Virus record (IMG/VR): IMGVR_UViG_2671180727_000014
Coordinates: 1 to 29,026 of that record
Length of the DNA stretch: 29,026 bases
Origin: a virus
Lineage: Duplodnaviria; Heunggongvirae; Uroviricota; Caudoviricetes
Direction: 5' to 3' (one strand)
Below the pieces are notes generated by a model. That model had not been told where the DNA came from. It made no database searches and was given only the letters and a program-made list of their open reading frames with translations. The translations under genes and the position numbers were made by a program. Shown in pieces: positions 20,803 to 29,026 of this stretch (positions are counted from its first letter, which is position 1; every line of letters begins with the position of its first letter).

Positions 20803-20840
20803 ATGCATTGGCGCAATGTACGCGCCAATGCATGATTTTT
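20803..20840 (+). terminator. terminator hairpin (12-bp inverted repeat ATGCATTGGCGC / GCGCCAATGCAT, 7-nt loop) followed by a T-run
   Basis: Read directly; sits between the convergent GIY-YIG gene and the ParA-partner gene. Confidence 0.6.
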
Positions 20841-21198
20841 AACCTTTCTTCATCAACTCTCGTTTGATTTCATCGGTACGCATCGTGACATCGGCAGCGG
20901 TGATCGCCTCGTTAAGTTTCACGATGTCCTCGATTTCCTGCGGTGTCTTCTCCGCAAGATGGAAAATAGCAGCACGAATCACGTCAGAACGAGTGAACTT
21001 CTCGAAGCGAGGGATGAACTTCATCATCTCCAGCAGTTCGAAGTATTCGTCCTCCAGTGACATTGTGCGGCTTTTAATTTTCTCTTTGCCACGAGTCGGG
21101 CGTCCCTGTGGTCTGACTGGTTGGCGCAAAGGAGTTGTGTTCTTAGCCGGTGCATCAGGCTCTTTGCGCTTTGCTAGGTCACCCATTTTCATGGACAT
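20839..21198 (-). CDS. small partition partner protein (ParG/ParB-like, possible ribbon-helix-helix), 119 aa
   Basis: Immediately downstream of parA and overlapping it by 1 nt; basic Pro/Arg-rich N-terminal tail followed by a compact domain (SRTMSLEDEYFELL...RSDVIRAAIFHLAE). Confidence 0.45.
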   Translation of the reverse strand: MSMKMGDLAKRKEPDAPAKNTTPLRQPVRPQGRPTRGKEKIKSRTMSLEDEYFELLEMMKFIPRFEKFTRSDVIRAAIFHLAEKTPQEIEDIVKLNEAITAADVTMRTDEIKRELMKKG

Positions 21199-21866
21199 TA
21201 TTCTTTTTCCTCCAGACTCAACAGATAATCTACAAATTCTTCAAACTCGGCTTCCGCCTTTTTGTCGCGCTCGCTACCGGTCATTTCAAAGATAGAACGA
21301 CCAGACTCTTCCGCATCATCATAGACGTTGCGGTTATATAGATTGACTGGCGCAGACTCGATGCCAAACGTCTCAACAATCTCTTTAGCCGCCAGAATGC
21401 GAGACACTTGTGATGGCAAAGCCGGACACTGGTTCATGACCGCGCGGACCTTCACTTTATCGTTTACATTACGAACATTGTCGATAATAGGATCGATATC
21501 ACGCAGAGATTTCAAATCACGACGCTTAGGACGAAGCGGGATAATGATAACGTCGGCCATCAGCATCGCTTGTCGCTGAATTTCGGAGTCGAAGCCACCA
21601 GCATCTACCACTACAAACTCAGCTCTACCCTGAAGCGATTTTAGGTGCTTAATGATGTCATCCTGAACGTATGCAAAAGGAATCAGCTCAAGGTCTTCGT
21701 TCTGTCGACGGTCTTCACACCAGCTCGTTGTCGTGCGCTGAATATCTATATCGGTAATATAAACCTTCTTCTTCTTTTTGACTTTCAGGCAAACGGCAAT
21801 TTGCTGGGCAACGGTGGATTTGCCAGGCCCGCCCTTTGTGCCGCCAACCACAAAGATCTTGGTCAT
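21198..21866 (-). CDS. parA: ParA/Soj-family partition ATPase, 222 aa
   Basis: Deviant Walker A KGGPGKST (IFVVGGTKGGPGKSTVA) and Walker B VVVDAGG. Confidence 0.85.
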   Translation of the reverse strand: MTKIFVVGGTKGGPGKSTVAQQIAVCLKVKKKKKVYITDIDIQRTTTSWCEDRRQNEDLELIPFAYVQDDIIKHLKSLQGRAEFVVVDAGGFDSEIQRQAMLMADVIIIPLRPKRRDLKSLRDIDPIIDNVRNVNDKVKVRAVMNQCPALPSQVSRILAAKEIVETFGIESAPVNLYNRNVYDDAEESGRSIFEMTGSERDKKAEAEFEEFVDYLLSLEEKE

Positions 21867-22184
21867 TGGAGAGTTCCCTTTGCGTATATAATTATCGTCT
21901 GAAACAACTTGTTTTCTTATATGTGATATAGCCTAAATGCCTACGGCTGCGGTGTAAAGGTTAAATGGTAGGTTGTGATTAACAATTGGCAATCATAGCT
22001 TGTATTTGTCTGTTGAAAAAAGTAACAATGACCTCTATATTACAAGTACGGTGATATGCCGTACACAATTTGATAATGCACACGTAATGGGCTATAGCCT
22101 TTTAAAGTAATTTTTGAGTCGAAAACTCAGTTTGAACAGAGGAGATTGATGGCCTTCCTACATCACGGCCATCAGGAGGAATAC

Positions 22185-22454
22185 ATGTCAGCACTAAAAA
22201 AGCAGCGCATCGATTTGAGATTAACCGATGACGATAAAAGCATCATCGAGGAAGCTGCCGCAATGTCTAACCAGAGCATTACTCAGTTTATGGTTAGCAG
22301 TGCATCTGAACGTGCCGTGAAAGTTATAGAGCAACACCGTAGACTAGTTCTGAATGAAGAATCCTGGAATCTGGTTATGGACGCTATAAGCAATCCTCCG
22401 GCACCGAACGACAAGCTGAAACGAGCTGCTGATCGTCTGAAAAGCATGGAGTAG
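22185..22454 (+). CDS. DUF1778-type ribbon-helix-helix antitoxin (TacA/AtaR-like), about 90 aa
   Basis: RIDLRLTDDDKSIIEEAAA...SITQFMVSSASERA and the NPPAPNDKL motif typical of antitoxins paired with GNAT toxins; AGGAGG ribosome-binding site before the ATG at 22185 (ORF track starts at 22146). Confidence 0.75.
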   Translation: MSALKKQRIDLRLTDDDKSIIEEAAAMSNQSITQFMVSSASERAVKVIEQHRRLVLNEESWNLVMDAISNPPAPNDKLKRAADRLKSME

Positions 22455-22461
22455 TTTACTC

Positions 22462-22983
22462 GTGAGCAATACAACGATAGAGATTTTCTCTGGAGAGAAA
22501 GATTATGATCTAAACGGTTTTGATTGCGGCGAAGAGTCACTAAACGCCTTTTTAGCCAACCACTTAAAAAGGCAGCATGAGGGAAAAATTCTTCGTGCTT
22601 ATGTGCTTTGCACTCAAGAAGAAAGGCCAAAAGTGTTAGGATATTACACTTTGTCAGGTAGTTGTTTTGAAAAGGAGTCCTTACCTTCAAGAAGCAAACA
22701 AAAGAAGGTTCCTTATCGGAATGTTCCAAGTGTTACTTTGGGTAGGCTGGCTTTGGACAAGTCCCTTCAAGGTCAAGGATTTGGCTCAATGCTTGTAACA
22801 CATGCAATGCGCGTTGTGTACAATGCATCTCTTGCTGTAGGCATTCATGGACTTTTCGTTGAGGCGTTAAATGACAAAGCCAAGGCGTTTTATAAAAGTT
22901 TAGGCTTTATCCAGCTGGTTGGTAACAACGAGCGTTCTTTGTTCTATCCTACAAAATCTATCGAAAAATTGTTCGAAGAATAA
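22462..22983 (+). CDS. GNAT-family acetyltransferase toxin (TacT/AtaT-like), 173 aa
   Basis: GNAT fold motifs (RLALDKSLQGQGFGSMLV...), start 8 nt after the antitoxin stop; classical antitoxin-then-toxin order. Confidence 0.75.
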   Translation: MSNTTIEIFSGEKDYDLNGFDCGEESLNAFLANHLKRQHEGKILRAYVLCTQEERPKVLGYYTLSGSCFEKESLPSRSKQKKVPYRNVPSVTLGRLALDKSLQGQGFGSMLVTHAMRVVYNASLAVGIHGLFVEALNDKAKAFYKSLGFIQLVGNNERSLFYPTKSIEKLFEE

Positions 22984-22986
22984 TGT

Positions 22987-23008
22987 GTTCCCCTCATTTG
23001 AGGGGAAC
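22987..23008. terminator. hairpin between convergent genes (10-bp stem GTTCCCCTCA / TGAGGGGAAC, 2-nt loop)
   Basis: Read directly, between the toxin stop (22983) and the o-spanin stop (23016); no strong U-tract. Confidence 0.45.
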
Positions 23009-23015
23009 TTCGACA

Positions 23016-23231
23016 TCACCAACCACAAACCCTCTCTCCCATCGTATTGTGAAAAAGGATTTGGCGTTCGGTTTCTTCAGTCATTACATCATTATTGCTG
23101 ATATAGATAGGCTCAGCCCCATCGCAGAACAACACGCTGGCTGTTTGTGGTTTAATGACGCACCCACTTATCATACAACTCACGATGAACGGCAGAAGCA
23201 TCTTTCTGACGTATTTTACTGCTCGTCTCAT
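23016..23231 (-). CDS. putative o-spanin (outer-membrane lipoprotein), overlapping the 3' end of the i-spanin gene out of frame
   Basis: Signal peptide with lipobox MLLPFIVSCMISGC; start embedded in the upstream gene as in Rz/Rz1-type overlapped spanins. Confidence 0.4.
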   Translation of the reverse strand: MRRAVKYVRKMLLPFIVSCMISGCVIKPQTASVLFCDGAEPIYISNNDVMTEETERQILFHNTMGERVCGW

Positions 23232-23403
23232 TCACCACTTTCACTGTGTTTTGAAGTCGTTTTCTGTCTTCCTGTTTTGCCTTCTCTTCCATTGCTCGTC
23301 GCGCCGCATTCCCGCCCATCGTGTAAGCGCCGACAAGAACGAAAAGAACGGCAGCCAGCGTAATCAAAGCAACTTTTAGCTTTGTCATCAGGCTGCCTAG
23401 CAT
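23152..23403 (-). CDS. putative i-spanin (N-terminal transmembrane helix, charged periplasmic region), 83 aa
   Basis: LKVALITLAAVLFVLVGAY followed by a charged helical segment (RRAMEEKAKQEDRKRLQ). Confidence 0.45.
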   Translation of the reverse strand: MLGSLMTKLKVALITLAAVLFVLVGAYTMGGNAARRAMEEKAKQEDRKRLQNTVKVVNETSSKIRQKDASAVHRELYDKWVRH

Positions 23404-23404
23404 A

Positions 23405-24124
23405 TTAGACCATCCCTTTCTGGTGTTTTCTTACCTGCGACCAGGCAATGAATCCTGCCACAACAATAGTGGCAATACCGAAGATGATGCGTACTGTATC
23501 CCCGCTAGAGATATGACCTTGTGCTTTATCCATAGCAGCGGAAACCTGCGGCATAACATCGGCCAGCTGCGCCAGACCAATACCTGCTGTAACAGTTGCG
23601 CCTGCGGTTTCTTTAGTTACAGGAACAGCCTTCACGGTTTTCACCGGCTTAACAACGCCAGCTCGACGCAGACCTTCCTCAATAACTTCTGCCGCATACC
23701 AGGTGTTCAGCGTTTTTAGCGGGCCTCGGCCATTCTCGTGGCGAATGATTGCCTCAACCAAAGGTCGAAGGATGTCGTAATCATGCAGATCGATGATCAT
23801 GTCTGCGGTTACACCAACGGCTTTAGACACCTCATTAATGTAGGCGTCAGTATTGTTTTCATTCGGCGGTGCCCAGCGTTCAATAACTTCACGAATGGTA
23901 TCGATACTTGTGCCGTCTTTTGCGCGACGTTTATCGTGGTAGGTAATTAGAGTCACCGCCAGCGCACGAATCCCCCAAACAGGGTCTTTAAACGTGCAAA
24001 AGCGCGGTTCGGCAGGGTTGTCGATTAGCCCCTGCCACGGCGAACCTTTGTCGAGGTTGCCAGGGTTGTTATTACGAATGCCTCTCGGAGTTTTCATCCT
24101 TGATCTCCTGTTATTGCAGTCCAT
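23405..24124 (-). CDS. candidate cell-wall hydrolase (endolysin-position protein) with a C-terminal transmembrane anchor, 239 aa
   Basis: Conserved-looking motifs GIRNNNPGNL...WQG and RWAPPNENNTDAYI; C-terminal hydrophobic helix IIFGIATIVVAGFIAW; located between a holin-like gene and the spanins. Enzymatic class not established. Confidence 0.4.
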   Translation of the reverse strand: MDCNNRRSRMKTPRGIRNNNPGNLDKGSPWQGLIDNPAEPRFCTFKDPVWGIRALAVTLITYHDKRRAKDGTSIDTIREVIERWAPPNENNTDAYINEVSKAVGVTADMIIDLHDYDILRPLVEAIIRHENGRGPLKTLNTWYAAEVIEEGLRRAGVVKPVKTVKAVPVTKETAGATVTAGIGLAQLADVMPQVSAAMDKAQGHISSGDTVRIIFGIATIVVAGFIAWSQVRKHQKGMV

Positions 24125-24446
24125 TCTTCACGCCATAAGCGGCCAGACCCAGCAGCAGCGCGGTAATCAGGAACGACGTTATCTTTGAGATAATGCCGCC
24201 AAAGAACCCGCTGGAGATGGCGTCTAGCCGATTAAGTAGTTTGTCCAGGTTGGAGTGCTGAATGCTGTGTTGCGAAGGCGTCATATCGCCAAAGTAGGCT
24301 TTGAGCTGGTCGTTGACCTCCTGGCCAATTTCCTCACGCAACTCCTTACCTAATTTGCCGACAACTTCACGCGCAACGATAGCGGCAATGCGCTCTACCT
24401 GCTCTGGCGTTACGCCTGCCATCTCGTTCGACATTATTTCCTCCAT
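24111..24446 (-). CDS. holin-position membrane protein (single C-terminal transmembrane helix), 111 aa
   Basis: C-terminal helix ITSFLITALLLGLAAYGV; first gene of the lysis cluster; GGAGG ribosome-binding site upstream of the ATG. Confidence 0.35.
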   Translation of the reverse strand: MEEIMSNEMAGVTPEQVERIAAIVAREVVGKLGKELREEIGQEVNDQLKAYFGDMTPSQHSIQHSNLDKLLNRLDAISSGFFGGIISKITSFLITALLLGLAAYGVKNGLQ

Positions 24447-24495
24447 GAATCGTCAAATCGGGATGGCGGTTTTATATCATAAAACGCCCACACTT

Positions 24496-24512
24496 GGTAG
24501 GTAAGTACTTAC
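24496..24512. promoter_or_regulatory. perfect 12-bp palindrome GTAAGTACTTAC (with flanking GGTAG) upstream of the lysis cluster; a candidate -10 TATGAT lies downstream on the minus strand
   Basis: Read directly, about 55 nt upstream of the holin-like ATG. Confidence 0.4.
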
Positions 24513-25348
24513 ACATGAGCGCCGTAAATTGCCCCAACTTTAGTCCAAGTTGGAGCATTACCAGTAACAGCTTTACCAGCTGCTCCGCCGTTATATTCTG
24601 TACCGTTACCTTGAGTATTACATCTTCCTCCAGCAGCACCGACATTACCACCCGAACCGCCTGTATATGCACTAAGAGACCCCTCACCAACAGATCCTTT
24701 ACCAGGAGCGGAAATAGTACCAGCAGTTGCACCGGAACTCATATGAGAGGAAGACCCACCAGCACCGAATGGGCAACCACCGCCACCACCAAATATTAGT
24801 TTACCCCTGTTACCGCCGCCACCGCCGCCACCACCTCCAGCGATTGCACCATTATTCGTAATACGCAAGCGTGTACCGATGCCATTATTAATTGCGTTAC
24901 CACCAGCAGCACCGGCAGCGTTACTACCACCATTGCCACCGCGTCCATAGACAGTCACACCTGCGTTGATTACAAGGCTGATATAAGAGTTGGTAAGTGA
25001 ACTCGGGAAATCTAAACATGGCACGCCGCTACTGGACGACACCAGATCCCCTGTAATGGTAACAACGACTGGCGTCGCCCCCTGGGATTTTAAATAGTTG
25101 ATCAGTGTGTCTTTGTTGTAGTTATGATTCGCACCGATGCTGTAATGAATTTCCTTAGAACGACCTGCTAACTGAGACATATTCCCAGCAGCAGACAATT
25201 GCACCGCCGTTCGAGCTGCACTCATCCATCTCTGGCCTGTCACACTGACAGCCGAAGACCCAATCCAACCGGGAACACCGACAATTGGCACATCTAATCT
25301 CCTTTTTGATGTGAATATCCTGAATTGGTGAGGGTGGCCCCTCACCAT
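24509..25348 (-). CDS. glycine-rich protein immediately downstream of the tail fiber gene (possible adhesin or tail fiber accessory protein), up to 279 aa
   Basis: Runs such as GRGGNGGSNAAGAAGGN and GGGGGGGGGNRGKLIFGGGGG. An alternative GTG start at about 25291 is preceded by AAGGAG; the annotated ATG at 25348 lies inside a hairpin. Confidence 0.5.
   Translation of the reverse strand: MVRGHPHQFRIFTSKRRLDVPIVGVPGWIGSSAVSVTGQRWMSAARTAVQLSAAGNMSQLAGRSKEIHYSIGANHNYNKDTLINYLKSQGATPVVVTITGDLVSSSSGVPCLDFPSSLTNSYISLVINAGVTVYGRGGNGGSNAAGAAGGNAINNGIGTRLRITNNGAIAGGGGGGGGGNRGKLIFGGGGGCPFGAGGSSSHMSSGATAGTISAPGKGSVGEGSLSAYTGGSGGNVGAAGGRCNTQGNGTEYNGGAAGKAVTGNAPTWTKVGAIYGAHV
25327..25346 (-). other. hairpin (8-bp stem GGTGAGGG / CCCTCACC, loop TGGC) between the tail fiber stop and the glycine-rich gene
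   Basis: Read directly; no U-tract, so it could be an attenuator or translational control structure. Confidence 0.4.
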
Positions 25349-25357
25349 TCACCTTGA

Positions 25358-28300
25358 TTACATTTTTGCCTTCAGTTCGCGCACTTCCTCGCGCAGCTCT
25401 TTGACAGCCTCGACCAACATGCCGATAACGCCGTTGTAGTTAAGACGCAGACGAGGCTCTCCTGACTGATCGTTATGGTCAACCGTTACCAGTTCAGGCT
25501 GAACATTCTGGACGTCCTGAGCGATGAGGCCGCCAGACTGCTCATACCGGTCACAGACCTGAATCTCGTACAGAACACCTTCGATCCGATCCAGCTTGTC
25601 GAGCGCTCGTTCAATCTTGCGAATATTGCGTTTGCTACGACGGTCAGAGCGGATATAAACGTCATTAAAGCTGCCATTACCGCCACAAACCCAAGTACCA
25701 TCATTCTGGAGGTATGCGTTCGCATCCGTGCCGTTTGCGGTACGTGAGTTGTTGATCATGTAAAAACCAAACTGACTGTTTCCCAAGCCACCCAAGAAGA
25801 ATTTGCGATCCGCGTGGTCTTGTCTCAACAACGCTTGTGCAGAGCTTGTACTTACAGCGTTCCTCCCGAAGATGACGTTCTGGTTACGCATATCTATCCA
25901 CGCGCCAGAGCCGCTGTTGATGGAAAAACGGTTGGCGTAAACCCACGCACTTGACGTGATGTCACCCGTTACACTCAACGGCTTAAGGCTTTGCAGCGTG
26001 CTATTAACGAACCTAAAAACATGGGCGCTATTGGCGTAAACATCCAGAATGCCATCTCCGTTCTGTTTAAAGCCGGTGTCATTGTCACCCAGAACAATGG
26101 AATTACCGCCAAGAGCACTGGATGTACCGATGCCCAGTGCACCATTCAATTGACCTCCAGATAATGATAACGCCCCAACATCAGCAGCAGTCGGTTTAAT
26201 GTGCGAACTGTAAATTACATATACAGTTCCATCTGTCAGGCCTGTTGGTTTATTCGCTGTATAAGTTGGTGATGTATGAATCGTTACGCTGGCGTTACTG
26301 GTATAATCCCACTGGATATTAACACCTGTGGCGTAATTACCTATTTCTACATAAATGTCATAGGTATCACCGGATGTATTCACCCATGCAAAATTAGTAA
26401 ATCCAACCGAGGTCCGTCGCCATAATGCACCAGTAATACCTTTGGGGTTCCCATTTCCTGCACGCAGAACCAGCTCAGAGATGCCTGCTTGCTGCGGGGA
26501 GCCAACGTTAAACCCTGCGCCACCAATCAGGCTTATGTAAACCACGGAACTGGCTTGTGGCATGGTTACAGTTGCCAGCTTGAACCATCCGGCACCACCA
26601 CTAAAAGACATTGTTGCTGAGTTGATCGTGCCTATAGACCTTGGAGTTAGCTCAATGTTTTTAGAACCGTCAAACGACACCCCATTTATAGTTCTAGCGG
26701 TTTGTAACTTGGTCGCTGTCGCTGCATTACCGGTTGTGTTCTGGTTACCAGCAATGTTTACACCCGGCAGGTTGATATTGGCGGAGCCATCGAATGACAC
26801 GCCGCCTATTGTGCGTGCTGTTTGCAGTTTTGTTGCAGTTGCAGCATTACCGTTCAAACTACCATTGATGCCGCCAGTAACATTGAGTCCATTACCGATC
26901 GTAACAGCACCGCTGGTATTATTAATTATAATAGGTCGCAAACCGTTCCATGAACCTAATGTGTCTCCTGATGCTGTTAGCATGAAATATGTGTTCGATC
27001 CATCATTACGGATAAAGAATCCATAGTTGCCATAGGCAATGCGCATACCATTCGCCGATTTTGAAATAATCTCGCCAGCAGCAGTTAATCCGCCAGTTAA
27101 CGCTCCTCCAGAAAGCGGTAATGCTCCTACATCAGAAGCTGTTGGTTTGTTTCTAGTGTTATAAGAACGACGCCAGCCTGGTGCATAATCACTCCCATTG
27201 TACACATAAATAAATTCCGCATTATTAACACCACCATGACCTGATGTTGTTGTCGTTGTAACACGAATAGTGTAGTGGCTTGTTGCCTTATTACTAAACA
27301 CCTCAATCACGGAACCAGATAGATCGATCCTACCGCAACCAGTGTCGTCTATATAATTATTGTTGGCGTAAGCCCATGAGCACCGTGCAATCCAATATTT
27401 GTTTGAAAATGCACCCTGATTATTTAGCCAAGTTATAAATTGAGCAGTCGTAAATGCCGTTCCGTTACCACTATTTAACCATCCATCGGCAGCGGTTGGC
27501 GCGTTTATATCAGCCGGCTGAGGCATAAATCCAGTCGTGTAAACCTGCTCCCAACCACTTTCAAAACCATAACCGTCTCTTGAGGAACGGTAGAACAGAC
27601 CACCATTTTTATAGTGAGCTTTAATTTGAAGCGTACGGCAACTACCTACACCGGTATAAAAGTTGGCAAGAATATAACTGTCGCCTGTTCTATTTACATT
27701 GTAAGCACCAGATTCAGCATTCCACGGCACGCCACCATCAGCATCCGCATATGACCCTGTTGCCCTTCTTGCGAAAGCGGCAACATGCGCAGCGGTTAAA
27801 GTGATATCAGTAGAACCATCAAATGGAACACCGGATATTTTTCTTACCGTCTGAAGTTTTGTAGCAGTTGCAGCATTACCAGTGGTGTTCTGATTACCCG
27901 TAGTGTTTACACCTGGAAGGTTAATATTTGCAGAACCGTCGAAAACAACTCCACCGATAGATCTTGCCGTCTGCAATTTCGTTGCTGTACTTGCATTACC
28001 ATTTAATGTTCCGGTGATACCACCAGTAACAGACAACGGACCTGAAACTGTTCCTCCGGTTGTTGGCAGTGCTCCAATATCTAACGGCGTCGGTTTCTGA
28101 TGTGTGCTATACATCGTATAAACAACACCATCGGTAACGCTGGAAGGCTTACTCGCTGAATATGTTGGCGATGTATAAATAGAAACTGACGCATTTGCAG
28201 TACAATCCCAATGGATATTTACACTCGTCGCATAATTGCCAATTTCAACGTAAATATCATATGTATCGCCGGATGTGTTGATCCAGGCGAAATTCGCTAA

Positions 28301-29026
28301 TCCGACAGCTGTACGCTTCCACAAAGCACCTGTAATTCCTTTGGGGTTTCCATTGCCTGCTCGTAGAACCAGTTCTGAAATGCCTGCCTGATGTGGGGAA
28401 CCGACGTTGTAACCAGCGCCACCAATCAATGCGATGTAAACGATGGAACTCGCTTGTGGCATGGTAACCGTAGCCAGTTTGAACCACCCTGCCCCGCCAG
28501 AGAAAGACATCGTTACTGAATTTAAAGTACCAATATCTTTCGGCGTTAATGTGATATCCGCAGTCAGTGCTTTTCCGTTAACTTTTCGGTTAGATGGCAC
28601 CCTGCTATTCGCATTGTCATTGGCTGCTTTAACTGCCTTCGGTGTCGCGGCAAGCGTTTCAGATGTGCTGTTGGTCGCACTGCTGAGCTGTACTATCCCC
28701 TTTTTCGTCGTACTTGCATCCTCAAGCGCCACGGCGGATGCAATATCCTCTGCCCGTTTAGCTGCTGTCTCGGCGCGCGTTGCCGCGGATTCCGCCGTAC
28801 TTTTGCTCTGAGCTGCCGCCGTCGCACTACCAGCTGCCTCTGTCGCCTTCGTGGATGCCGTCGTGGCGCTGCCTTTCGCTGCTGATGCCTGTCTGGTCGC
28901 CTCATCTTTTGAAGCAGACGCAGATGATGCCGATGACGCTGCCGAACTGGCGGACGATGCGGCTGCCGTTTTTGAGGATTCTGCACGGGTTTCCGACGCT
29001 TTCGCGTTCGTTTCGGATGTCTTCGC
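25358..29026 (-). CDS. long tail fiber protein, 5'-truncated by the window end (at least 1222 aa in window), with C-terminal intramolecular chaperone (peptidase S74-like) domain
   Basis: The frame stays open to position 29026; the ORF-track start at 28732 is an internal GTG. Ala/Ser/Thr-rich N-terminal repeats (AKTSETNAKASETRAESSKTAAAS...), then GIVQLSSATNSTSETLAATPKAVKAAND. Fiber repeats NGNAATATKLQTARTIGGVSFDGSANINLPGVN. C-terminal chaperone-like DRRSKRNIRKIERALDKLDRIEGVLYEI...LREEVRELKAKM. Confidence 0.85.
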   Translation of the reverse strand, partial: AKTSETNAKASETRAESSKTAAASSASSAASSASSASASKDEATRQASAAKGSATTASTKATEAAGSATAAAQSKSTAESAATRAETAAKRAEDIASAVALEDASTTKKGIVQLSSATNSTSETLAATPKAVKAANDNANSRVPSNRKVNGKALTADITLTPKDIGTLNSVTMSFSGGAGWFKLATVTMPQASSIVYIALIGGAGYNVGSPHQAGISELVLRAGNGNPKGITGALWKRTAVGLANFAWINTSGDTYDIYVEIGNYATSVNIHWDCTANASVSIYTSPTYSASKPSSVTDGVVYTMYSTHQKPTPLDIGALPTTGGTVSGPLSVTGGITGTLNGNASTATKLQTARSIGGVVFDGSANINLPGVNTTGNQNTTGNAATATKLQTVRKISGVPFDGSTDITLTAAHVAAFARRATGSYADADGGVPWNAESGAYNVNRTGDSYILANFYTGVGSCRTLQIKAHYKNGGLFYRSSRDGYGFESGWEQVYTTGFMPQPADINAPTAADGWLNSGNGTAFTTAQFITWLNNQGAFSNKYWIARCSWAYANNNYIDDTGCGRIDLSGSVIEVFSNKATSHYTIRVTTTTTSGHGGVNNAEFIYVYNGSDYAPGWRRSYNTRNKPTASDVGALPLSGGALTGGLTAAGEIISKSANGMRIAYGNYGFFIRNDGSNTYFMLTASGDTLGSWNGLRPIIINNTSGAVTIGNGLNVTGGINGSLNGNAATATKLQTARTIGGVSFDGSANINLPGVNIAGNQNTTGNAATATKLQTARTINGVSFDGSKNIELTPRSIGTINSATMSFSGGAGWFKLATVTMPQASSVVYISLIGGAGFNVGSPQQAGISELVLRAGNGNPKGITGALWRRTSVGFTNFAWVNTSGDTYDIYVEIGNYATGVNIQWDYTSNASVTIHTSPTYTANKPTGLTDGTVYVIYSSHIKPTAADVGALSLSGGQLNGALGIGTSSALGGNSIVLGDNDTGFKQNGDGILDVYANSAHVFRFVNSTLQSLKPLSVTGDITSSAWVYANRFSINSGSGAWIDMRNQNVIFGRNAVSTSSAQALLRQDHADRKFFLGGLGNSQFGFYMINNSRTANGTDANAYLQNDGTWVCGGNGSFNDVYIRSDRRSKRNIRKIERALDKLDRIEGVLYEIQVCDRYEQSGGLIAQDVQNVQPELVTVDHNDQSGEPRLRLNYNGVIGMLVEAVKELREEVRELKAKM
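26153..26653 (-). repeat. copy B of the duplicated tail fiber module (TPRSIGTINSATMSFSGGAGWFKLATVTMPQASS...TSPTY...ALSLSGG)
   Basis: As for copy A; each copy is adjacent to a pair of ATATKLQT fiber repeats (about 27797-28015 and 26654-26881). Confidence 0.75.
28049..28552 (-). repeat. copy A of a duplicated ~168-aa tail fiber module (TPKDIGTLNSVTMSFSGGAGWFKLATVTMPQASS...TSPTY...ALPTTGG)
   Basis: Aligned by eye to copy B with high amino-acid identity; antisense ORFs in both regions also share peptides, showing nucleotide-level similarity. Confidence 0.75.

Follow-up and report, generated by a model that had tools for sequence, protein, structure and literature searches.

A predicted membrane-tethered Enc34/M4Lys-type endolysin and overlapped spanins in the lysis cassette of an SSU5-like phage-plasmid

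How a catalytic domain that is made in the cytoplasm and carries only a C-terminal membrane anchor reaches the cell wall is a question of the field, and it is raised by four minus-strand genes at positions 23,016 to 24,446 of a 29,026-nucleotide (nt) stretch of tailed-phage DNA (Caudoviricetes; IMG/VR virus record IMGVR_UViG_2671180727_000014, positions 1 to 29,026; hereafter the window). With a probability of roughly 0.7, the genes are read here as the lysis module that closes the late operon of an SSU5-like phage-plasmid, composed of a hairpin-tethered Enc34-type endolysin, a tail-anchored protein of 107 amino acids (aa) acting as holin or timer, and overlapped spanins, of which the outer-membrane one belongs to the Chi family. 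Secure within this reading is that the genes form a lysis module and encode a membrane-bound Enc34-type glycosidase together with a two-component spanin. An earlier note on the same DNA had called the cluster an atypical lysis cassette. That it is a lysis cluster is borne out by the PHROG matches of the spanins, by the match of the endolysin and by the annotation of the phages SSU5 and Cyrano, and the word atypical is fair, since the cassette departs from the lambda paradigm of a holin with several transmembrane (TM) helices and a soluble endolysin.

Many E. coli plasmids of 105-120 kb shared 99.9% identity with the lysis region, and the value was 95% for Escherichia phage Cyrano and 84% for Salmonella phage SSU5. 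These values mark the window, to judge from its sequence, as part of an SSU5-like phage-plasmid, an assignment in keeping with the genes that come immediately downstream (ParA, RelE/ParE-like and TacA/TacT). The cassette is carried by more than 400 PLSDB plasmids. Public phage records already describe it as a lysis module, the same four genes being labelled Holin, Endolysin, Rz and Rz1 in those of Cyrano and SSU5. All four open reading frames (ORFs) of the earlier note were verified at their positions (Table 1), and the 111 and 239 aa given for the first two are likely too long: internal ATGs preceded by good Shine-Dalgarno sequences (GGAGG before M5 of the first ORF and AGGAG before M10 of the second) are likely the true starts, and they yield proteins of 107 and 230 aa, as annotated in SSU5 and Cyrano and in agreement with the PHROG profile lengths. 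With the corrected starts the two genes are 13 nt apart and do not overlap. A canonical holin or endolysin elsewhere in the genome, which would have spoken against a lysis cassette at this place, was not found in the RefSeq annotation of SSU5, which lists no second holin or endolysin over 1-100 kb of 103 kb.

The enzyme class of the second protein, which had been considered unassignable, is already known from published relatives, as is its C-terminal anchor. A PHA02564 catalytic domain occupies approximately residues 1-150 and is followed by a Lys-rich linker. By phmmer, residues 3-151 were aligned with the catalytic domain of Enc34 (7q47_A) at E=2e-53, and when the AlphaFold2 (AF2) model, in which the predicted local distance difference test score (pLDDT) of the catalytic domain was 80-96, was searched with Foldseek, 7Q47 was the sole strong match (E=1.6e-14, TM-score 0.79, 57-59% identity). 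W75 (in RWAPP), Y86 (in AY) and E121 (in HENG) were invariant in alignments of 20 and of 29 homologous sequences, and they correspond to Trp79, Tyr95 and Glu131 of Enc34, in which Glu131 is the catalytic residue and is helped by Tyr95 and Trp79 (Cernooka et al., PMC8943055). The motifs RNNNPGN and RWAPPxENNT of the earlier note are both present, the second as RWAPPNENNT, and the match to 7Q47 together with the three invariant residues thus makes them signature motifs of a solved and active enzyme family. The Enc34 domain is distant kin of the GH73 and GH23 enzymes, its muralytic activity has been demonstrated, and it clears permeabilized E. coli, Pseudomonas and Hafnia (PMC8943055); for M4Lys, liquid chromatography-mass spectrometry indicates N-acetylglucosaminidase activity (Bai et al., PMC7143992). 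By homology to these tested relatives, the 230-aa protein is an Enc34/M4Lys-type endolysin and is predicted to be muralytic.

The Enc34-type domain was also found as a part of larger proteins (ejection, core, tape-measure and head) in many other phages (for example PDB 9vvp, Gp29) and in corticovirus PM2, and its embedding in such virion proteins explains the old label of the family, which still bears the NCBI name 'virion protein'. Both facts would suit a virion-associated enzyme that pierces the wall during infection instead of an endolysin. Such a role is very improbable for the 230-aa protein, which stands alone, is anchored in the membrane and is encoded between a holin-like gene and the spanins, with its stop codon overlapping the start of the inner-membrane spanin (i-spanin) gene; moreover, homologues of the same architecture lyse the cell from within (PMC7143992), and SSU5 has no other annotated endolysin. 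As a side observation, two endolysin variants of 289 aa (P0001 and P0006), whose reading frames continue past the stop into the following gene region, occurred on single metagenome contigs and are probably assembly or frameshift artefacts.

The earlier note had assigned a single C-terminal hydrophobic helix to each of the first two proteins; both helices were found (residues 77-101 and 201-222), and the endolysin has an additional, weak one. Its strong TM helix (residues 201-222) reaches a Kyte-Doolittle (KD) peak of 2.07 at approximately residue 213 with a crude Hessa sum of +1.2 kcal/mol, and the conserved, Gly/Ala/Thr-rich helix at residues 164-194 has a KD value of approximately 1.1 and a crude Hessa sum of +7.8 kcal/mol. 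The two are joined by an acidic loop whose last residues are SSGD, and after the TM helix the protein closes with the basic tail RKHQKGMV. In the AF2 model this region is a helix-loop-helix with helices at residues 164-171, 175-194 and 199-226, the confidence being below 50 at the first helix. The pattern PVTKET...G.G.AQ.A(D/E)..P....A......SSG..VRI.FG..TI...IA(W/Y)SQ.(K/R)KH is kept, with few exceptions, by the full-length members of the 120 homologues listed, down to an identity of 56%, and the module is, as this pattern suggests, more than a passive anchor.

The net charge is +3 in the segment before the first helix, -1 in the loop and +3 in the tail. A +3 tail that crossed the membrane would violate the positive-inside rule. 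Since only about 10 residues follow the last helix, insertion must be post-translational, and no route is known by which a C-terminal anchor could export a 200-residue N-terminal domain (PMC8943055). The absence of an export route for such a domain, the +3 tail and the fact that only a 13-residue acidic loop has to cross therefore favor an N-in/C-in hairpin, and the module probably forms a helical hairpin whose two ends are cytoplasmic. Published predictions for relatives likewise score the weak helix as a second TM helix (PMC6498227, PMC8943055), and for the Siskin homologue TMHMM gave N-in/C-in with two TM helices (PMC6498227).

Experiments on relatives bear on both the topology and the lytic function of this module. 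Full-length M4Lys alone lyses E. coli, and azide does not block this lysis; removal of the C-terminal hydrophobic segment abolishes it, the TM domain (TMD) alone is bacteriostatic, and co-expression of the upstream protein causes a slight delay (PMC7143992). Full-length Enc34 ORF39 is toxic (PMC8943055). A different topology has been discussed in the form of a signal-anchor-release (SAR)-like model by the authors of the Enc34 and AP1 studies (PMC8943055, PMC8879335). The endolysin would then span the membrane once, N-out/C-in, as a mirror image of a SAR endolysin, and its exported domain would lie inactive at the periplasmic face until it was released or activated through depolarization by the 107-aa protein as a pinholin. 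A single span accords with the one endolysin segment that passes the hydrophobicity thresholds, with a basic tail suited to a cytoplasmic C-terminus and with the N-out topology that Phobius and Phyre2 predict for M4Lys (PMC7143992), but the segment before the first helix is as basic as the tail, the resistance of M4Lys lysis to azide and the missing export pathway argue against transport of the domain, and the first 30 residues of either start variant contain no hydrophobic segment, so that neither an N-terminal signal nor a SAR signal anchor is present. On balance this topology is unlikely. The sequence NRRSRM in the 239-aa reading was considered as a signal of the twin-arginine translocation (Tat) type and rejected, because no hydrophobic core follows it and it lies 5' of the probable start.

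The last two genes encode the spanins. The i-spanin has an N-terminal TM helix at residues 9-27 (Hessa sum -1.6), as stated in the earlier note, followed by a periplasmic helical domain of approximately 55 aa, and its ATG overlaps the endolysin stop (TAATATG). The outer-membrane lipoprotein (o-spanin) has the signal peptide MRRAVKYVRKMLLPFIVSCMISG, with a basic n-region, the core LLPFIVSCM and the lipobox ISGC, which ends in the Cys after the cleavage site; its mature part comprises 48 aa with Val, a non-Asp residue, at position +2. Because the o-spanin gene, in the +1 frame, shares 80 nt with the end of the i-spanin gene and extends for 136 nt past the i-spanin stop, the architecture is 'overlapped', as the title of the earlier note had it, and not 'embedded', as was written in its text. 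The i-spanin with its TM helix and helical domain, the o-spanin with its lipobox, and the gene overlap are all three features expected of an overlapped two-component spanin. Identity to Chi gp40 was 51% for the o-spanin (E=2e-17), which agrees with a spanin census that groups SSU5 with Chi and Enc34 (PMC6139136); the likeness of the i-spanin to Chi gp39 was weak (29% identity, E=0.015).

Table 1. Positions of the lysis genes, their motifs and helices, and the neighboring features in the window
Feature	Position	Strand	Evidence or remark
111-aa ORF of first gene	24111..24446	-	
107-aa lysis-cassette membrane protein	24111..24434	-	'putative holin' in SSU5/Cyrano; phrog_5093, 4e-67
Motif YFGDMTPSQHSIQH of 107-aa protein	24255..24296		
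TM helix, residues 77-101	24132..24206		
239-aa ORF of second gene	23405..24124	-	
230-aa Enc34/M4Lys-type endolysin	23405..24097	-	PDB 7Q47, E=2e-53; phrog_873 'endolysin', 2e-87
RNNNPGN motif	24056..24076		
RWAPPNENNT motif	23849..23878		
Codon of catalytic Glu121 (HENG)	23735..23737		
Weak helix, residues 164-194	23516..23608		
TM helix, residues 201-222	23432..23497		
i-spanin, 83 aa	23152..23403	-	phrog_1026 'Rz-like spanin', 7e-25
TM helix, residues 9-27	23323..23379		
o-spanin lipoprotein, 71 aa	23016..23231	-	phrog_1275 'Rz-like spanin', 1e-24
Lipobox ISGC	23160..23171		
Terminator-like hairpin	22987..23008	-	9-bp stem, 6 G-C pairs; consensus scan only
TacA antitoxin and GNAT (TacT/KacT-type) toxin pair	22146..22983	+	
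ParA and RelE/ParE-like gene	20839..21866	-	RelE/ParE-like gene as annotated in Cyrano
T-even gp38-type receptor-recognizing adhesin	24509..25348	-	PF05268, 7e-70; Gp38_N, 6e-15
1124-aa tail-fiber gene	25358..28732	-	
300-nt duplication within tail-fiber gene	26154..26453 and 28053..28352		69% identical, 1899 nt apart

The product of the first gene consists of a helical N-terminal domain of approximately 75 aa, which contains the conserved motif YFGDMTPSQHSIQH, a single C-terminal TM helix and a 6-aa tail, VKNGLQ, with a charge of +1. It has no signal sequence, its charged domain is N-terminal, and most plausibly it is tail-anchored with the N-terminus in the cytoplasm. The AF2 model, computed with 15 homologues, was all-helical (helices at residues 10-27, 30-48 and 56-76, and a TM helix at 82-103) and is unreliable (pLDDT 47). 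Pfam and NCBIfam searches gave no match for this protein or for 45 phrog_5093 relatives, and phrog_5093 itself is labelled 'unknown function'. A profile search of the family returned 63 cluster representatives (50% identity clusters) of 100-140 aa with the same layout, in which the motif (Y/H)FG(D/E)M(T/S)PxxHxxQHxR(I/L)D...D..S.NF(W/F)G precedes the C-terminal helix and G49, H56 and H60 are invariant; a narrower family alignment search returned only relatives at least 92% identical. Close relatives were found only in SSU5-like elements (from Escherichia, Salmonella, Klebsiella, Cronobacter, Photorhabdus and others), and the gene is the first of the cassette in all SSU5-like records. The literature search found no experiment on any member of phrog_5093, and in the literature searched neither a tail-anchored holin nor a lysis regulator of such topology is described. 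Membership of the DUF2730/releasin family was rejected, as there was no PF10805 match at E≤1 and the TM helix is C-terminal. Homology to Chi gp37, also in circularly permuted form, was rejected for lack of similarity; BLASTP of the 107-aa protein against Chi gp37 gave nothing at E≤100, so that it is not a partner of the Chi type.

Distant members of the family were sought in IMG/VR with a revised degenerate DNA motif pattern, which gave nine loci, five with true family members and four without (L167, L169, L171 and L175). Three of the distant members were scanned and confirmed as phrog_5093 (E values from 1e-9 to 1e-17); the L174 protein is the same as that of L172, and L170 was assigned by motif and layout. 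All five loci have the family member at the head of a lysis cassette whose endolysin is of another kind. In L173 a Peptidase_M15_3 enzyme (4e-17) comes next, and no other membrane protein was visible over the 2 kb downstream. In L168 the cassette continues with a probable M15 enzyme, then a hydrophobic ORF of 77 aa with no assigned function, and then embedded spanins. L172 and L174 have a phrog_8226 holin, a phrog_669 endolysin and spanins behind the family member, and L170 has a phrog_8226 holin there. This variety of endolysins marks the family, as far as gene neighborhoods tell, as a general component of lysis cassettes and not as a specific partner of anchored endolysins.

Anchored Enc34-type endolysins were in turn found behind several kinds of protein. 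Chi-type proteins precede them in L014, L016, L017 and L019, and in three loci (L025, 2146-2433; L034, 2177-2467; L035, 2123-2416) an unrelated protein of approximately 95 aa with a coiled-coil N-domain and a C-terminal TM helix stands before an anchored endolysin that is 37-42% identical. The L035 protein belongs to DUF6127/phrog_10540 (4e-22), and those of L025 and L034 belong to no family; an upstream partner with a C-terminal TM helix seems to have arisen more than once. In the pHCM2-like IMG/VR locus L013 (1414-3583), whose endolysin is 58% identical, the preceding gene encodes a LydA-type holin (PF16083, 1e-9). That locus also has an apparent second overlapped spanin pair (with a phrog_456 lipoprotein) before the endolysin in addition to the usual 83-aa/67-aa pair after it, which makes two spanin sets in one cassette.

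From the gene identities, homologies, motifs and hydrophobic segments observed in the window, and from the enzyme activity and the TMD-dependent, holin-independent lysis reported for homologues, we infer the topologies, the role of the 107-aa protein and the following order of events. The endolysin is, by homology, a lysozyme-alpha-lobe-like glycosidase whose catalytic Glu lies in HENG and whose helper residues are Trp in RWAPP and Tyr in AY, and its conserved C-terminal module ties it to the inner membrane. Its catalytic domain would wait in the cytoplasm and reach the wall only upon breach or depolarization of the membrane. The hairpin itself may contribute to this breach, because the relatives lyse E. 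coli without a holin or Sec but not without the last helix. The 107-aa protein, with its N-domain in the cytoplasm, would be the holin or a timer or regulator of the lesion, and the i-spanin/o-spanin pair would, after loss of the wall, fuse the outer with the inner membrane.

Several observations weigh against this proposal. The functional data all stem from homologues with approximately 55% identity that occur in Chi-like phages and have an unrelated partner protein there, and the Chi-type analogue of the partner is non-lethal and dispensable in vitro (PMC7143992). The first helix of the endolysin module is too weakly hydrophobic for a TM helix by KD or Hessa criteria, and the Phobius and Phyre2 predictions for M4Lys place the N-terminus in the periplasm, opposite to a hairpin. 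Applied to the single Lys103, the positive-inside rule favors, if anything, N-out for the 107-aa protein. This protein matched no described holin family, canonical holins included; its small size and one TM helix fit holins, but it lacks a highly charged C-terminal tail. A separate holin-like gene, finally, stands in three of the five distant loci (L170, L172 and L174). The missing family match, the tail, the separate holin-like genes and the non-lethal Chi analogue together make it doubtful that the 107-aa protein is 'the holin'.

These same facts lead to a reading with no canonical holin at all, in which the endolysin hairpin makes the lesion as a built-in holin-like element and the 107-aa protein, as an antiholin- or releasin-like regulator, sets the time through its cytoplasmic domain. 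It would account for lysis by M4Lys alone, for the bacteriostatic TMD and the slight delay caused by the upstream protein (PMC7143992), and for the toxicity of full-length Enc34 ORF39. The harmless Chi-type analogue and the phrog_8226 holins adjoining the relatives in L170, L172 and L174, to which the 77-aa hydrophobic ORF of L168 may be added, are likewise in line with a regulator, and phage Mu offers a precedent in a membrane-tethered cytoplasmic lysis regulator that replaces a holin (PMC9239132). Yet holin-independent lysis has been seen only under strong overexpression, a caution expressed by the Enc34 authors themselves (PMC8943055), the family member of L173 precedes a soluble M15 endolysin with no further membrane protein in view, and the single-pass partner of phage AP1 accelerates lysis by a C-terminally anchored endolysin (PMC8879335). 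A cassette without a canonical holin is the main rival reading and is possible, though clearly less likely than not. Extended to the whole family, the idea would make phrog_5093, with the motif FGDMTPxQHxxQHxR(I/L)D, an unnamed family of lysis proteins, tail-anchored with a cytoplasmic N-domain, that time or regulate a lesion made by a separate holin or, in SSU5-like elements, by the endolysin hairpin, and SSU5-like elements would be 'holin-less' as proposed for Mu; this generalization is tentative, and the odds are rather against it.

The proposal of a hairpin-tethered endolysin with a tail-anchored holin or timer can be set beside known systems. The endolysins Enc34 ORF39, BSPM4 M4Lys, Chi gp38 and that of Siskin have the same domain order and approximately 55-59% identity to the 230-aa protein; the Trp/Tyr/Glu active site is identical, the helix-SSG-helix module and the basic tail are conserved, and the gene likewise lies between that of a single-pass membrane protein and overlapped genes for an 83/84-aa i-spanin and a small o-spanin. 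These genes belong to Chi-like siphoviruses of approximately 60 kb, whereas the element studied here is a phage-plasmid of approximately 110 kb; the i-spanin is only distantly similar, as given above, and the upstream partner is a different protein with its anchor at the other end. The 'class IV holin' candidates Chi gp37, Enc34 ORF38 and their Siskin counterpart (phrog_7686) resemble the 107-aa protein in being single-pass proteins of approximately 110 aa with a helical soluble domain of approximately 70 aa and in being encoded immediately upstream of the anchored endolysin, and, provided that the 107-aa protein is N-in, the large domain is cytoplasmic in both kinds. In Chi gp37, however, an N-terminal TM helix (N-out, C-in) precedes a coiled coil of approximately 70 residues, whereas the TM helix of the 107-aa protein is C-terminal and the protein belongs to another PHROG.

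In Acidovorax phage AP1, a C-terminal TM segment of the endolysin LysAP is also needed for lysis and localization, and the single-TM partner HolAP, harmless alone, interacts with the endolysin and speeds lysis (PMC8879335). AP1 differs in that the catalytic domain of LysAP is GH24 (T4-lysozyme type) and not PHA02564, the partner has its TM helix at the N-terminus and is itself a member of a Pfam holin family, and involvement of Sec has been reported, unlike for M4Lys (PMC8879335). The Mu releasin gp25 (DUF2730) and the SAR endolysin gp22 share with the proposed system the concept of a membrane-tethered cytoplasmic domain that controls a membrane-bound endolysin, possibly without a canonical holin, and the releasin and phrog_5093 families both occur with diverse endolysin classes (PMC9239132). 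By contrast, the TM helix of gp25 is N-terminal (N-out, C-in), its gene lies downstream of the endolysin gene, no PF10805 match was found here, and the Mu endolysin is anchored N-terminally and exported by Sec. With lambda S/R/Rz/Rz1 the cassette shares the gene order (holin-like gene, endolysin, i-spanin, o-spanin) and the +1 frame of the o-spanin gene. The lambda holin has three TM helices, its endolysin is soluble and Rz1 is embedded; in the present cassette the first protein has one TM helix, at its C-terminus, the endolysin is anchored, the o-spanin is overlapped, and both spanins are very short.

C-terminally anchored endolysins were described for Chi-like phages in 2019-2022 (PMC6498227, PMC7143992, PMC8943055), and the architecture was considered to be limited to Chivirus and close relatives (PMC8943055). 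With the fold, activity and anchor of the endolysin already published for relatives, two points are new with respect to the literature found: the class of Enc34-type anchored endolysins extends to phage-plasmids, and the first gene of the cassette represents an unnamed family with a C-terminal anchor, a topology not described there for a holin or lysis regulator. SSU5-type phage-plasmids are common in clinical and farm Enterobacteriaceae, and their lysis genes set the time of host burst. The applied interest of the enzyme class lies in the killing of permeabilized Gram-negative bacteria by the truncated domains of Enc34 and M4Lys. For the question of how the catalytic domain reaches the wall, the SSU5 cassette offers a natural comparison, in which a Chi-like endolysin and o-spanin are combined with a non-homologous partner anchored at the opposite end, in a genetically tractable E. 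coli element.

The cassette lies directly downstream of the tail-fiber gene and the adhesin gene (Table 1). A terminator-like hairpin begins 7 nt past the o-spanin stop; it faces the convergent tacA-tacT genes and is the probable end of the late/lysis transcript. A scan of positions 22800-25500 for sigma-70 promoters found none, which is consistent with read-through from the late operon and is no proof of it. The tacA-tacT pair converges on the ends of the spanin genes, and the ParA and RelE/ParE-like gene lies just beyond it; with these genes next to the spanins, the lysis operon therefore abuts a plasmid-maintenance region.

Further observations concern neighboring genes and related loci. 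The adhesin gene of this siphovirus-like phage-plasmid is 90-97% identical at its 3' end to the gp38 genes of many T4-like phages, which suggests an exchange of host-range modules. The tail-fiber gene contains, besides its internal duplication, four copies of a 79-nt unit encoding a 'NGNAATATKLQTAR..GG..FDGS' motif. In SSU5, the adhesin and the holin are separated by three further genes that the window lacks, which encode Cor, a membrane protein and an outer-membrane protein, and a 'lysozyme inhibitor LprI family protein' is annotated far from the lysis cassette (L085; NC_018843.1, 86898-87596). In Mu-like loci (L028, 3922-4236; L033, 3961-4275; L032, 2259-2492), a phrog_462 protein labelled 'lipoprotein' stands near an anchored Enc34-type endolysin; it has an N-terminal TM helix and a coiled coil, the layout of the Mu releasin, and no PF10805 match. 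An SSU5-like IMG/VR contig of approximately 100 kb (L166, 6876-8293) contains a homologue of the 107-aa protein and the anchored endolysin, and the endolysin is followed there not by a recognizable i-spanin/o-spanin pair but by a putative lipoprotein of 102 aa.

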